Assembly: GCA_046758505.1 (NCBI GenBank) | Contig: JBHIAH010000019.1 | Location: 1 to 37,258 of the forward strand | Source of the DNA: Candidatus Methylomirabilales bacterium | GTDB lineage: Bacteria > Methylomirabilota > Methylomirabilia > Methylomirabilales > CSP1-5 | DNA: 37,258 nucleotides | Reading direction: 5' to 3' | Shown here: positions 15,099-26,514 of the stretch, in pieces | Numbering within the stretch: position 1 is the first letter of the stretch | How the letters are laid out: each line of letters begins with the position of its first letter | Position numbers and translations under genes: made by a program | The notes under the pieces: model-generated | Seen by the model: only the letters and a program-made list of their open reading frames with translations | Told to the model about the DNA's origin: nothing | The model's database searches: none

Positions 15099-15155
15099 GC
15101 GGGTGGGGTCAGGCATTTGGCGGGTGGGGTCATGGCGGGTGGGGTCAGGCATTTG
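15099..15155. repeat. Three copies of GCGGGTGGGGTCA (copies 1 and 3 extended by GGCATTTG)
   Basis: Copies start at 15099, 15120 and 15135. Confidence 0.85.
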
Positions 15156-15392
15156 TATATTTATATCGGCTTTGGGACCGGTTCCAGCATCGTTTAGTAC
15201 CGTGTCTTGCAATCCCACCCCGCCCTTCCTCCGGGGTTGCTCATCCTTGGGACGATCGTAGTTTGGGCTTGACAGGAGCTGTGCGTGCTGGGGTACAAGA
15301 GAGGCGACTCCAGGCGACCCTTCGGGTTGCCGCGTGGCTGACTCTGGGACGAGGACTCAGCTCTCAACACTCAACTCTCAGCAGGTAGTTGA

Positions 15393-15435
15393 GATGGAAC
15401 CGGGGTAGGGATAACCCCTAGCCCACCTCCGGCAC
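15393..15435 (+). promoter_or_regulatory. Conserved leader hairpin, copy 1 (candidate cis-regulatory RNA)
   Basis: GATGGAACCGGGGTAGGGATAA-cccta-GCCCACCTCCGGCAC is highly similar to 26409-26452 on the minus strand; a TTGACA lies at 15269. Confidence 0.6.
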
Positions 15436-15461
15436 GATTGACGGCGTTTCGGAAGTTTCTG

Positions 15462-15506
15462 ATGCCCTCTCGGGCGAACCTTGGCCCGAGAGGGCGTATT
15501 GCTTTT
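15462..15506 (+). terminator. Intrinsic terminator-like hairpin in the 5' leader of the MBL-rhodanese gene
   Basis: 14-bp stem ATGCCCTCTCGGGC / GCCCGAGAGGGCGT, 8-nt loop, tail ATTGCTTTT. Confidence 0.7.
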
Positions 15507-15574
15507 GACCGTTGGTCGGGAAATGCACCTCAGTTGCAGGCAGCGCGTCCTCATCGAAGTAGGGAGATTGAACG

Positions 15575-16702
15575 ATGTATTTTAAGCAAATCTTGGACGA
15601 ACGCTGTGGTTGCGCATCCTATCTGATAGCCTCTCGCCAATCGCATGAGGCGGCGATCGTCGATCCCTCAATCGAGACGCAACCATATGAAGAATTGCTC
15701 CGGGAGCGCAACTTTCGACTGCGCTATGCGCTCGACACGCACGTGCACGCAGACCACGTGTCAGGCGCACGCAAGCTTCGAACCGCCCACGCGGCCGAGC
15801 TGTGTCTGTATGAAGAGGCCCAGGTGGTCTACCCCTTCCGTCCCCTCAAAGATGGCGAAGAGCTCGCGCTAGGGCAGCTACGCCTGCGCGTGTTGCACAC
15901 ACCCGGACATCGCCAAGAGCTGATCTCGATCCTGATCATTAACCCACCCCGCAGCCCGGAGCCCTCGATGGTGCTGACGGGCGATTCGCTACTGGTCGGC
16001 GACGTCGGCCGCCCGGACTTTGGAGGCGGCGACGCCGCTGTTCAGTATGACAGCCTGACGCGCTTGCTACGGCTGCCGGACTGGGTGGCGGTTTTTCCCG
16101 GTCACTTTGAGGGGCCTTGCGGCAAAGGGATGTGTGGCCGACCCAACACAACCATCGGCTTCGAGCGACTGTACAACCCATTGACCCGCCTGGATCGCGA
16201 GACCTTTGTCTCTACCCTCGTACACAGCCTCGCCGCGCGGCCATTGAACATGACCGCCATCGAGGCGACCAACCGGGGCGTGGGCGACATGCCGTGGGCT
16301 ATGCTAGCCACCGCCCCCGCAGTCAGTGAGATCGACATCAATACACTGGAAATGCGTCCGCCAAGGGCAGTCGTCTTGGATGTTCGCGAACCGCAGGAGT
16401 ACGCGCACGGGCATGTCCCTGGTGCGGTCAATATTCCCCAAGCAGACCTAGCCTCGCGGCTGGACGAGGTGCCGCGGGATTGGCCCGTGATGATCATTTG
16501 CCAGTCAGGGATGCGCTCATTGCGGGCGGCGCAGTACCTGACGCAGATGAACATCGCTCAGGTCGCGAACGTGAAAGGTGGTAGCACAGCGTGGCGCAAG
16601 GCAGGCAAAGCGGTCACCGTCGGCGACACGAGCGTGGAAGAGCCTCGTGTCACCGAAACGGAATGGATGCACGCCGGCGCCCGCAGCAGCCTCCAGACTT
16701 AG
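15575..16702 (+). CDS. MBL-fold persulfide dioxygenase (ETHE1-like) fused to a rhodanese domain
   Basis: DTHVHADHVSG, HTPGH, TGDSLLVGDVGRPD, FPGH, TTIGFER.YN; rhodanese LDVREP.EY..GHVPGA..ICQSGMRS; RBS GGGAG. Confidence 0.9.
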   Translation: MYFKQILDERCGCASYLIASRQSHEAAIVDPSIETQPYEELLRERNFRLRYALDTHVHADHVSGARKLRTAHAAELCLYEEAQVVYPFRPLKDGEELALGQLRLRVLHTPGHRQELISILIINPPRSPEPSMVLTGDSLLVGDVGRPDFGGGDAAVQYDSLTRLLRLPDWVAVFPGHFEGPCGKGMCGRPNTTIGFERLYNPLTRLDRETFVSTLVHSLAARPLNMTAIEATNRGVGDMPWAMLATAPAVSEIDINTLEMRPPRAVVLDVREPQEYAHGHVPGAVNIPQADLASRLDEVPRDWPVMIICQSGMRSLRAAQYLTQMNIAQVANVKGGSTAWRKAGKAVTVGDTSVEEPRVTETEWMHAGARSSLQT

Positions 16703-25274: not shown

Positions 25275-26273
25275 TTAGTCTTCCGCCGGGGGGGCGTCCC
25301 CCGACGCCTCTTCCTGCCCTTGGGCCTCGGTGGCTACTCGTCCCCTCGATTCGGCCTCACGCCGGGGCTGCACCGCCAGGACCGGACAGGGTGCCTTTCG
25401 GATCACCGCCTCGGCCACGCTGCCGAGGAGAACGTGGCTGAGGCCGGTGCGCCCCCGGGTCCCCATGACGATCAGGTCGACCTGCTCCTCCTCAGCCTCG
25501 GCCACGATGACCGCGGCGGGGACCCCCACCTGCACCTTCGCCCGGGCGCGCAGCCCGAGCACCTCGACCACGTGCTGGCGGCGGGCGAGCTCGTCCTCGA
25601 GCGATTCCAGGTACCGTTCCTGCTTCCCGGCGGGGAGGGGGACGGGGGTCTCCACCCCCCCAGCCAGGCCACCCGGGCGCACCACGTGGAGCAGGAGGAG
25701 CTCCGCCCCAAAGACATCGGCCAATGTAAGGGCATGGTGCCAGGCCCCTTCGGAGACCGGGGAGAGATCGGTCGCCCACAGGATCCGCTGAACTGCGGTC
25801 AGGGGGCGGTCCCCCTGCCCAAGGCGGAGGGCGAGGACGGGGACGGGGACATTCCGGAGCACCGCCTCGGTGACACTCCCGAGCAACAGGTGGGCGAGGC
25901 CGGTGCGCCCTTCGGTCGCCATGAGGATGAGATCGGCCCGGCTCCGGTGGGCCGCCCAGGCGATCCCGGGGGTCGGCTCCCCCACCTTTACCTTGCACGC
26001 GACCGTAAGGAACCGCCGGAGCTCGGCCGGCACGGCGGCCTCCAGCCATTCCCGGAGCTGGTCACGCACCTCCTCCAGGACCTCCACCTGGGTCCGGGCC
26101 AGCGTCTCTCCCAGCCGGTGGACCAACTCCACGCCTGGGAGGGCGTGGAAGAGGATGAGCTCGGCCTCGGCCCGCAAGGCCAGCCGGGCGGCGAGGCGGC
26201 AGGCGACCGTGGCGGCGGGGGAAAAGTCGGTGGGGACGAGAATCCGGGTGATCCGCGCGGTCGTGCTCAACAC
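25275..26273 (-). CDS. Tandem-domain universal stress protein
   Basis: Two USP domains: ILVPTDFS..DLILMAT.GRTG..LLGSVTE.V and ILWATD.S..DLIVMGTRGRTG..LLGSVAE.V..PCPV; RBS AGGAGG before GTG 26273/TTG 26270. Confidence 0.93.
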   Translation of the reverse strand: MLSTTARITRILVPTDFSPAATVACRLAARLALRAEAELILFHALPGVELVHRLGETLARTQVEVLEEVRDQLREWLEAAVPAELRRFLTVACKVKVGEPTPGIAWAAHRSRADLILMATEGRTGLAHLLLGSVTEAVLRNVPVPVLALRLGQGDRPLTAVQRILWATDLSPVSEGAWHHALTLADVFGAELLLLHVVRPGGLAGGVETPVPLPAGKQERYLESLEDELARRQHVVEVLGLRARAKVQVGVPAAVIVAEAEEEQVDLIVMGTRGRTGLSHVLLGSVAEAVIRKAPCPVLAVQPRREAESRGRVATEAQGQEEASGDAPPAED

Positions 26274-26338
26274 TCCCCTCCTGGCTCGGTGCTTCGAGAC
26301 CACAATTCCCGGTCGGGGCCAGAGCCCTGACCTATCCC

Positions 26339-26383
26339 AAAAACAAAACGCCCCCCGGGGGCATACGCACCCCGGGAAGGCGT
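26339..26383 (-). terminator. Intrinsic terminator in the 5' leader of the USP gene
   Basis: ACGCCTTCCCGGGGTGC-GTAT-GCCCCCGGGGGGCGT followed by TTTGTTTTT. Confidence 0.75.
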
Positions 26384-26408
26384 CTGAATTCCTGGTGCAC
26401 CATCGCGT

Positions 26409-26452
26409 GTGCCAGAGGTGGGCGGTGCGATTATCCCTACCCCGGCTTCATC
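26409..26452 (-). promoter_or_regulatory. Conserved leader hairpin, copy 2 (candidate cis-regulatory RNA)
   Basis: GATGAAGCCGGGGTAGGGATAA-tcgcacc-GCCCACCTCTGGCAC. Confidence 0.6.
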
Positions 26453-26485
26453 CGTCCCTCTCTTCTCTCCTTGGCATCCGTTCAA

Positions 26486-26514
26486 ATTATCGGCCCTCTT
26501 CCGAGGATTGTCAA
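26486..26514 (-). promoter_or_regulatory. Sigma70 promoter upstream of leader copy 2 and the USP gene
   Basis: TTGACA-17 nt-GATAAT. Confidence 0.7.

Follow-up and report, generated by a model that had tools for sequence, protein, structure and literature searches.

The attenuation of transcription by a ribosome is known from the leader peptides of trp- and his-type operons and from the antibiotic-sensing leaders of erm and ABC-F genes, in which a short open reading frame (ORF) with its own Shine-Dalgarno (SD) sequence lies in the 5' strand of the first hairpin, an intrinsic terminator precedes the gene, and the position of the ribosome regulates the outcome. Other structured leaders are the transcriptional riboswitches of the ON type, such as the second-messenger riboswitches found in many copies per genome, and the RNA targets of ANTAR proteins, which consist of two tandem hairpins with hexanucleotide loops. 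At the level of DNA, highly similar upstream regions located before non-homologous genes of one genome have been described as putative mobile promoters (Nijveen, Matus-Garcia & van Passel 2012, PMC3575422), defined by at least 80% identity along a minimum of 50 nucleotides (nt) upstream of non-paralogous genes in one genome; that survey contained mostly pairs of sequences, pointed out that regulatory RNA motifs can travel with such promoters, and named Correia elements, ERIC, BOX and REPIN. These are intergenic repeats that carry promoters. Here we describe a leader element that is present twice in a 37,258-nt stretch of a Candidatus Methylomirabilales genome (contig JBHIAH010000019.1 of assembly GCA_046758505.1, positions 1 to 37,258; hereafter, the window) and belongs to a large family.

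Each unit of the family is composed of a promoter, a purine-rich SD-like box, a mini-ORF overlapping a first hairpin (P1), a linker with a second helix (P2), a terminator and a co-oriented gene. This fixed order of parts, as well as the orientation to the gene, the copy number, the taxonomic range and the terminator, was observed for the family as a whole. Our tentative interpretation, to which we give somewhat less than an even chance, is that the two elements are copies of a single cassette, about 190-250 nt long and restricted to one lineage, which has been propagated before unrelated genes and attenuates transcription in cis. Judging by the pattern of sequence conservation, the sensor of the attenuator is probably the translation of the mini-ORF, and the family probably forms a genome-wide switch operating at the RNA level.

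The first copy occupies positions 15392-15507 of the forward strand and the second one positions 26338-26453 of the reverse strand; the core sequences are ATGGAACCGGGGTAGGGATAA...GCCCACCTCCGGCAC (15394-15435, +) and ATGAAGCCGGGGTAGGGATAA...GCCCACCTCTGGCAC (26409-26451, -), so that the two look-alike elements reported by the initial annotation of the window are indeed present at these sites and on these strands. The copies share 73% of the columns of a 270-nt alignment, and the blocks ATGRARCCGGGGTAGGGATAA, GCCCACCTCYGGCAC and TTCNGAYGCC, together with the terminator arms, are identical or nearly identical in both. The 15-mer CCGGGGTAGGGATAA occurs in the window exactly twice with no mismatches, and there are still two sites when up to three mismatches are allowed, versus 1.05 expected by chance. 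In both copies the GGYG...GAYGCC segment is followed by an intrinsic-terminator-like hairpin with a T tail, which ends 67 nt ahead of each likely start codon (ATG 15575 and TTG 26270), in agreement with the distance of 65-70 nt proposed earlier. With the covariance model R1 the two copies obtain 89.3 and 84.4 bits (E of about 1e-17 and 1e-16), and dozens more matches appear in the same genome, so that chance similarity of this pair can be excluded.

The R1 model was built from an alignment (A2) of nine copies from the own genome, with a mean column identity of 73% and long identical blocks, and only the P1 hairpin was supplied to it as structure. While a loose pattern and a fuzzy regular expression had found 4 and 13 copies in this 3.0-Mb genome, R1 gave 39 matches at E<=0.01 and 50 at E<=1; what was taken for a two-copy element is therefore represented by at least 39 matches. 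In the same genus (g1), 12 of 13 genomes contain the element, from 2 to at least 109 matches per genome, the latter in the 3.4-Mb genome G006. Across the order, matches were found in 24 of 66 genomes (g1 12/13, g2 1/1, g5 3/6, g8 7/20 and g6 0/21), with 1-10 per genome in the three related genera. A sample of the phylum contained 21 matching genomes out of 151, all within three families of the order, and none among the 94 genomes of the largest other family. These tallies include the unpublished genomes G007 (g1) and G021 (g5), of which only G021 enters the phylum sample; leaving both out, the counts are 11/12 for g1 and 2/5 for g5, and the sequence of neither genome is part of any alignment or copy count. 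A search with an exact leader 19-mer against one genome per species of all prokaryotes returned 41 stretches, 25 of which were accepted by R1 as full elements, mostly in records named Methylomirabilota, NC10 or Methylomirabilales. Seven of the accepted copies (L197, L206, L207, L209, L213, L220 and L222) lie on short contigs of 2-8 kb in metagenome-assembled genomes labelled otherwise, namely Binatia (three), Nitrospiraceae, Nitrospinota, Acidobacteriota and Gemmatimonadetes, and could be either mis-binned Methylomirabilales DNA or cases of real spread. The 16 stretches not accepted by R1 comprise one at the contig end of a Methylomirabilis record and 15 in other taxa (Enterobacter, Azospirillum and others), which were taken as chance word matches. 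Within the own genome the copies cluster on contigs C18 (25.2-37.5 kb, nine matches at E<=1) and C2 (1.8-17.5 kb, eight matches at E<=1), all on one strand, in runs of neighbouring genes that each have their own leader, spaced 1-3 kb apart.

A search of the whole window against Rfam 15 at gathering thresholds gave no match, and all 4227 models applied to the two copy regions at E<=10 gave only chance-level microRNA and long non-coding RNA noise far under threshold, consistent with the earlier statement that the element matches no known riboswitch class. No description of it was found in Rfam, in the full-text literature on riboswitches of Methylomirabilis or among the ten best-ranked papers on small or non-coding RNAs, attenuation and leader peptides of Methylomirabilis, subscription-only papers and supplements lying outside the scope of this search. 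The family thus appears undescribed. From an evolutionary viewpoint it agrees with the putative mobile promoters (PMC3575422), at a far higher copy number and with a defined RNA.

For counting, 148 non-identical copies (own genome and 105 loci in relatives) were retained from 154 nhmmer hits after six duplicates or cut-short hits had been dropped; the core is strongly conserved in sequence throughout this set. A terminator, defined as a U tract behind a hairpin with an energy of -12 kcal/mol or below, was detected in 108 of 137 well-anchored same-genus copies and in 20 of 150 random genome segments. Its hairpin always ends 95-104 nt past the CCGGGG anchor, its stability ranges from -20 to -31 kcal/mol, and several of the 29 copies that failed the test have an imperfect terminator visible by eye. 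At the other end of the unit, 54 of 135 copies, referred to as the short form and comprising copy 2 as well, have a near-consensus promoter TTGACA-N17-GATACT that ends 20-34 nt ahead of the AUG, whereas such a promoter was found anywhere in only 25 of 500 random windows. The long form, which includes copy 1, carries an additional 5' module made of TTGACA, a conserved GGGGTACAAGAGAGGCACC box and a UUCG-capped hairpin; an nhmmer profile located this module at nine places in the own genome, seven of them 47-60 nt upstream of a core.

Several further observations concern the 5' part. The 17-nt promoter spacer is itself conserved among copies (CCCCTG..C..GT.GGGG before ATACT, with an inverted CCCC/GGGG pair inside), for example on contig C127 of the own genome at about 2250-2280 and at many loci in relatives, and could serve as an operator for a DNA-binding regulator. 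Heptamer arrays of the ACTCAAC/CTCAGCT type, located between the 5' module and the mini-ORF, occur not only in the window but also in copies on contigs C93, C1 and C18, indicating that the transcribed leader tolerates the heptamer repeats of this genome. A motif, GGTCTTGAATCTTGACATT, was found beside several own-genome copies, on the upstream side at C107:1327 and C18:34740 and immediately downstream at the weak copy C6:18333-18364; its C18 occurrence has GGGTCAG/GCTGAGG heptamer arrays ahead, and it may represent another type of promoter.

The gene context of 41 own-genome copies was determined with a rough gene caller based on codon usage. Thirty-eight copies are intergenic, and the next gene is co-oriented in 34 cases (24 of 28 for copies with E<1e-6), while the upstream gene has no such strand bias (23 on the same strand, 14 on the opposite one). 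In at least one 'opposite' case out of seven the caller missed the gene, as a co-oriented PrmA-like ORF with a Pfam match is present behind that copy. In relatives, the median distance from the CCGGGG anchor to the start of the ORF is about 200 nt. Further copies are therefore neither randomly oriented nor, given the terminator counts above, terminator-less, a combination that would have spoken against the initial annotation. Pfam matches were obtained for the longest co-oriented ORFs behind 23 of 39 copies in the own genome and 46 of 92 in relatives. They include stress and redox families (Usp, CBS+BON, GYD, DinB, MsrA, AhpC, CMD and cupins), signalling families (sigma-54 activators with PAS or GAF domains, histidine kinases, response regulators, an extracytoplasmic function (ECF) sigma factor, PilZ and PhoU), and also methyltransferases, aldehyde, pyrroloquinoline quinone and molybdopterin enzymes, transporters, and TPR and RHS proteins. 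No common pathway or transporter class was apparent among these genes in the own genome and its relatives. The view that the element controls stress genes is too narrow, as sigma-54 activators, kinases, methyltransferases, dehydrogenases and transporters are found there as well.

The promoters and terminators might also be those of multicopy small-RNA genes, each unit yielding an RNA of 110-230 nt that acts in trans (for example via the anti-SD-like CCCACCUCC) or as a ribosome decoy, with the adjacent gene transcribed separately. Near-consensus promoters combined with very strong terminators do predict abundant short transcripts, a few copies have no nearby co-oriented gene (C127:1748 and C43:20143), and the C-rich anti-SD-like motif recalls the seed regions of known small RNAs. 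Such genes, however, would not require the tight co-orientation with, and closeness to, the next gene, nor the preservation of orthologous leader-gene pairs between species, and dozens of near-identical RNAs with a single seed would be redundant. A small-RNA family fits the promoter and the terminator but not the tie to the gene, and we consider it quite improbable.

The leader-gene pairs are illustrated by the window itself, as the products of the genes behind copies 1 and 2 have counterparts in G006, 78% and 67.5% identical respectively, that are also located behind copies of the element. On the other hand, the leaders at C18:30965-31052 and C18:32565-32652 of the own genome are identical over their whole length and at least 75 nt upstream (more than 160 nt in total), while the genes behind them encode different proteins, a methyltransferase and a metallophosphoesterase; here the cassette alone seems to have been copied recently. 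Taken together, the pairs kept between species and the identical leaders before different genes indicate that the cassette is copied independently of genes and is kept once placed. The C18 pair also corresponds to the definition of putative mobile promoters (PMC3575422), with which the element shares near-identical regions upstream of non-homologous genes; it differs in that its family numbers dozens to more than a hundred members, has a defined leader RNA with a mini-ORF and a terminator, and is kept across families of the order. Neither unit of the window has terminal inverted repeats, the sole inverted repeat being the terminator. A mobile repeat of the inverted-repeat kind (miniature inverted-repeat transposable elements, Correia elements, REPINs) or a transposon end was rejected on these grounds and on the co-orientation of 34 of 41 copies, and a plasmid or phage origin was rejected as blastn found no matches in 72,556 plasmid and 50,697 phage records; the element is not an inverted-repeat end of a mobile element, which would have spoken against the initial annotation. 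Like Correia, ERIC, BOX and REPIN sequences, it occurs in numerous intergenic copies, has a modular build (short and long forms, heptamer arrays) and is predicted to affect the expression of the neighbouring gene, but unlike them it lacks terminal inverted repeats and is strictly oriented to the downstream gene, opening with a promoter and closing with a terminator.

It may be asked whether the cassette senses anything at all. A selfish or neutral mobile promoter, in which P1, the mini-ORF and the terminator are baggage that sets a low constitutive expression, would explain the identical C18 leaders, the conservation of the promoter spacer and the wide differences in copy number (2 to at least 109) between species of a single genus, and the occurrence of highly similar regions upstream of unrelated genes has been described (PMC3575422). 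Nevertheless, the start, stop, SD sequence, P1 pairing and terminator are kept between families despite a sequence change of about 40-50%, which argues for purifying selection on this core architecture, as far as can be read from the sequences; pure functionless propagation, therefore, does not fit. The absence of terminal inverted repeats and of plasmid or phage matches also speaks against a selfish cassette, and propagation and a regulatory role do not exclude each other. We regard a cassette devoid of sensing as highly doubtful.

The conserved core starts with AUG-RAN-CCG-GGG-URR, and the triplets in which the initial annotation wrote the element are a mini-ORF running from start to stop; this, the high copy number and the promoter as a part of the unit are points beyond that annotation. 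Mini-ORF statistics were obtained for 141 anchored copies, seven of the 148 being dropped for an anchor with two or more mismatches. The start codon is ATG in 113, GTG in 8, TTG in 5 and another triplet in 15 copies, and CTG does not occur; codon 5 is TAG in 71, TGA in 42, TAA in 13, TGG in 3 and another triplet in 12. Both the start and the stop are intact in 114 copies, and a second in-frame stop follows two codons further in 98. A purine-rich block lies at -13 to -8, with an anti-SD duplex energy of -6.8 kcal/mol (-4.6 kcal/mol for shuffled sequences), and GGAG, GAGG or AGGA with a spacer of 3-11 nt was found in 75 of 124 copies. Of 28 distant copies, which come from other genera (alignment A4), 24 keep ATG; the stop directly follows the fourth codon in 18 and the fifth in one more, and an AGGUG-type SD sequence stands 3-9 nt ahead of the start in 24. 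Codon 2 in these copies is free in sequence (GAA, ACA, CCC, CAT, GTC, GGC and others) but fixed in length, codons 3-4 covary with the opposite strand of P1 (for example, CCA AGG or CGA AGG with UCUCUCG), and the peptide varies outside the genus (MTPR, MPQG, MVPP, MGPK and others). The conservation of the start, stop, length and SD sequence, but not of the peptide, suggests that the act of translation matters rather than its product. Thus, from this pattern of conservation, the leader appears to bear a translated mini-ORF of four codons, consisting of an SD-like box, AUG, GUG or UUG, a free codon, two codons belonging to P1, and UAG, UGA or UAA. The conserved succession of SD, AUG, three codons and stop points to an involvement of the ribosome, a reading absent from the initial annotation.

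The P1 hairpin pairs CCGGGGU(A)GGC with GCC(C)ACC(U)CCGG, so that its 5' strand overlaps the mini-ORF and its 3' strand contains the anti-SD-like CCCACCUCC. In 114 same-genus copies, 88.1% of the positions of P1 and P2 are paired, 14 cells have a two-sided change and none of 500 shuffles reaches the covariation score. In the 28 distant copies, 70.5% of P1 is paired, 6 of 10 pairs and 15 cells are changed on both sides (for instance, CGAAGG paired with UCUCUCG), again no shuffle out of 500 attains the score, and sliding the register lowers it in every case. The common stem proposed for the two window copies is accordingly recovered as P1. An alternative local hairpin (CCGGGG with the proximal CCYNRG) was rejected, 495 of 500 shuffles reaching its pairing percentage and 442 of 500 its covariation score. 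The reading of GGAAC-N16 as an ECF-sigma promoter was also dropped upon inspection, the would-be -10 element lying inside the variable P1 loop. RNAalifold found almost no consensus structure in 125 wide alignments, and mutual information is dominated by two sequence subfamilies, UAGGC and UGACC.

The second helix, P2 (GAYGGCG with CGCCYUC), is 89.6% paired and almost invariant, with two-sided changes at three of six pairs in the 114 copies. Its 3' strand is formed by the first 6-7 nt of the terminator 5' arm, an overlap typical of an expression platform, which makes P2 a putative antiterminator; the pairing with the base of the terminator that had been noticed for copy 1 corresponds to this helix. 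In conservation, the linker and the loop of P2 (CACAAUCGAYGGCGCACCA..A..UCAGACGCC) equal the stems, GGCGCAC and ACGCC being kept even in distant genera. The loops of P1 and P2 comprise about 10 and 13-15 nt, respectively.

This geometry is shared with ON-type riboswitches, in which the last helix of a conserved structured leader has bases in common with the terminator arm and which also stand in many copies before signalling genes. P1, the linker and the P2 loop might, therefore, act as the aptamer of a second messenger or global metabolite whose binding stabilises P2 and so keeps the foot of the terminator from pairing, the AUG and the stop being incidental; the conservation of the linker and the loop, including in distant genera, and the many copies before PilZ, GAF/PAS sigma-54 activators and kinases, which resemble the regulons of second-messenger riboswitches, are in line with this. 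However, the element has neither an Rfam match, even at E<=10, nor a shared downstream pathway or transporter class that would name a ligand, the covariation in P2 is minimal, and the number of at least 109 copies in a 3.4-Mb genome is unlike that of known classes. Moreover, its translation signals are foreign to aptamers: the replacement of AUG by GUG and UUG but never by CUG, a canonical SD sequence at the right spacing in another genus, and a second codon free in sequence but fixed in length would all be left unexplained. The riboswitch of the initial annotation fares poorly for these reasons, the evidence for it being geometric, the covariation weak and the genes without a common pathway, and we consider it unlikely.

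Alternatively, a factor acting in trans, a protein or a small RNA, could bind P1 and/or the repeated GGCAC...GGCGCAC motif and stabilise P2, in a manner similar to RAT/BglG or ANTAR systems. The terminator is far too stable for P2 alone, so an outside factor would be needed; the linker is conserved in sequence rather than in structure, as suits a protein-binding site, and one regulator could serve a regulon of such size. Yet no candidate factor was identified, and the conserved start, stop and SD sequence would again be left unexplained. ANTAR regulators were rejected as the partner: across the order they are encoded in 48 of 66 genomes, among them 15 of the 21 belonging to the genus without the element, and thus do not follow its occurrence. 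The leader resembles ANTAR terminator/antiterminator leaders in having two hairpins before the terminator, the second overlapping the terminator 5' arm, and in the multi-operon regulon, but its loops of about 10 and 13-15 nt are not the hexaloops of ANTAR targets. The own genome encodes a single ANTAR-domain protein (C2:58537-58698). A ligand or a protein acting on the linker and P2 fits the geometry as well as a ribosome does, while leaving the translation signals without explanation; control by a trans-acting factor is, in our opinion, rather improbable.

In the ribosome-mediated attenuator proposed here, a ribosome on the mini-ORF would keep P1 open, whereas in its absence P1 would fold, GGGGU pairing with the anti-SD-like ACCUC. 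The state of P1 would then determine if the terminator 5' arm has its first bases held by the linker and P2; if it had, transcription would read through, and otherwise the full terminator would form. About 40 to more than 100 transcription units could in this way respond together to the ease with which ribosomes initiate on, or depart from, the mini-ORF. That this amounts to a genome-wide ribosome-availability regulon of such size, with a mini-ORF buried in an SD/anti-SD-like hairpin and ribosome occupancy deciding between termination and read-through, is possible but on balance doubtful. If it were true, stress, signalling and accessory-metabolism genes would be switched jointly by the translational state of the cell, at the level of RNA and not by a sigma factor or repressor.

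Among described systems, the element would work most like a leader-peptide attenuator, sharing with it the short ORF with an SD sequence, start and stop in the 5' strand of the first hairpin (predicted to be translated), the intrinsic terminator before the gene and regulation by ribosome position, and the earlier idea of a shared transcription-attenuation element fits this anatomy. Yet it fails two defining features of the class, the 2:3 antiterminator and the regulatory codons. Its ORF has only four codons, with neither a regulatory codon run nor a conserved arrest peptide; there is no 2:3 antiterminator complementary to the terminator arm; the predicted folding of the terminator is unaffected by ribosome occupancy; and the element precedes dozens of unrelated genes instead of one pathway.

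Several results weigh against ribosome-mediated attenuation. In nearest-neighbour folding of 106 copies, the mean pair probability of the terminator is 0.88 for the free leader and 0.87 once the footprint of the mini-ORF is blocked; a thermodynamic switch controlled by the ribosome was, therefore, rejected, and any switch has to be kinetic or factor-dependent. A classical 2:3 antiterminator was not found, the P1 3' strand and the terminator 5' arm both being C-rich, and P2 has only 4-6 pairs to set against a terminator of -20 to -31 kcal/mol. Both structure alignments were fitted to P1 by the model, which favours P1, and covariation is weak because the family is young. The translation signals themselves allow other explanations in part: the rarity of UGG at codon 5 is equally explained by the keeping of a P1 mismatch, as UGG would give a perfect helix; the SD-like box of short-form copies is also the 3' arm of a small 5'-terminal hairpin; and the A preceding the second stop, at the third position of codon 6 (xxA-UAG), shows stronger conservation than a coding role predicts. 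An intact four-codon frame is absent in 27 of 141 same-genus and 9 of 28 distant copies, and the peptide, which is not conserved outside the genus, has no evident arrest motif. Finally, CCG and GGG are common codons here (40% of Pro and 34% of Gly), which makes the sensing of hungry codons unlikely; rare-codon sensing was rejected on the same basis.

Should the proposed attenuation by the mini-ORF be right, the regulon would rank among the largest known to be attenuated through a single type of leader, in NC10 (Methylomirabilota), a little-studied and mostly uncultured phylum, and its sensor, an SD sequence, four codons and a stop within a hairpin, would be smaller than any classical leader peptide. 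If the leader is instead a riboswitch or is controlled by a protein, the ligand or factor would count as a major regulator in these organisms on the strength of the copy number alone. The family is also a clear natural example of a promoter and regulatory leader being copied before unrelated genes, a quick means of rewiring expression. In annotation, the model can serve to locate the 5' ends of hundreds of Methylomirabilales transcription units and the genes that are likely co-regulated.

In the window, copy 1 (all parts on the forward strand) starts with a long-form 5' module at 15261-15338, presumed to comprise the promoter and the first leader hairpin: TTGACA at 15269-15274, the box GGGGTACAAG at 15290-15299 and the hairpin GGCGACCC-UUCG-GGGUUGCC at 15313-15331. 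A sigma-70 consensus scan called no promoter in this module, as the second hexamer lacks the final T. The module is followed by an array of 3.7 copies of the heptamer ACTCAAC detected by Tandem Repeats Finder (15355-15380) and by the mini-ORF ATG GAA CCG GGG TAG (M-E-P-G-stop, 15394-15408, read directly from the sequence), with the second in-frame stop TAA at 15412-15414. Hairpin P1 (15400-15432) is made of the 5' strand CCGGGGUAGGG (15400-15410) and the anti-SD-like 3' strand GCCCACCUCCGG (15421-15432), and in helix P2 (15440-15469) GACGGCG (15440-15446) pairs with UGCCCUC (15463-15469). The intrinsic terminator (15462-15507) consists of a 14-pair stem-loop at 15462-15497 and the tail ATTGCTTTTG. 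The gene behind it (15575-16702) encodes a persulfide-dioxygenase-like protein of 375 amino acids with a metallo-beta-lactamase fold and a rhodanese domain (Pfam PF00753, 9e-16; PF00581, 7e-19).

Copy 2 lies wholly on the reverse strand and is of the short form, with the promoter TTGACA-17 nt-GATAAT (26486-26514) agreeing with the sigma-70 consensus at 11 of 12 positions. The purine-rich GAGAGAAGAGAGGGACGG stands ahead of the mini-ORF ATG AAG CCG GGG TAG (M-K-P-G-stop, 26437-26451). Hairpin P1 (26412-26445) has its 5' strand at 26445-26435 and the 3' strand GCCCACCUCUGG at 26423-26412, and RNAfold returns this fold for the P1 stretch alone at -11.3 kcal/mol. In helix P2 (26376-26404) GAUGGUG (26404-26398) pairs with CGCCUUC (26382-26376), and the terminator GACGCCUUCCCGGGG...CCCCCGGGGGGCGU with the tail UUUGUUUUUG occupies 26338-26384, the stem ending at 26348 and the tail covering 26347-26338. 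The gene that follows (25275-26303) encodes a tandem universal stress protein (Pfam PF00582, 1.8e-58, in two stretches); its likely start is TTG 26270, after AGGAGG, while the longest ORF begins with GTG 26303.

In G006, the counterpart of copy 1 before the metallo-beta-lactamase-rhodanese gene (L141) has lost the first stop by a change of UAG to CAG, which is compensated in P1 (U-A to C-G), and the second in-frame UAG then closes an ORF of six codons. Between the preceding gene and copy 1, the window contains three degenerate copies of a 15-21 nt unit (consensus GCGGGTGGGGTCAGGCATTTG) at 15099-15155.

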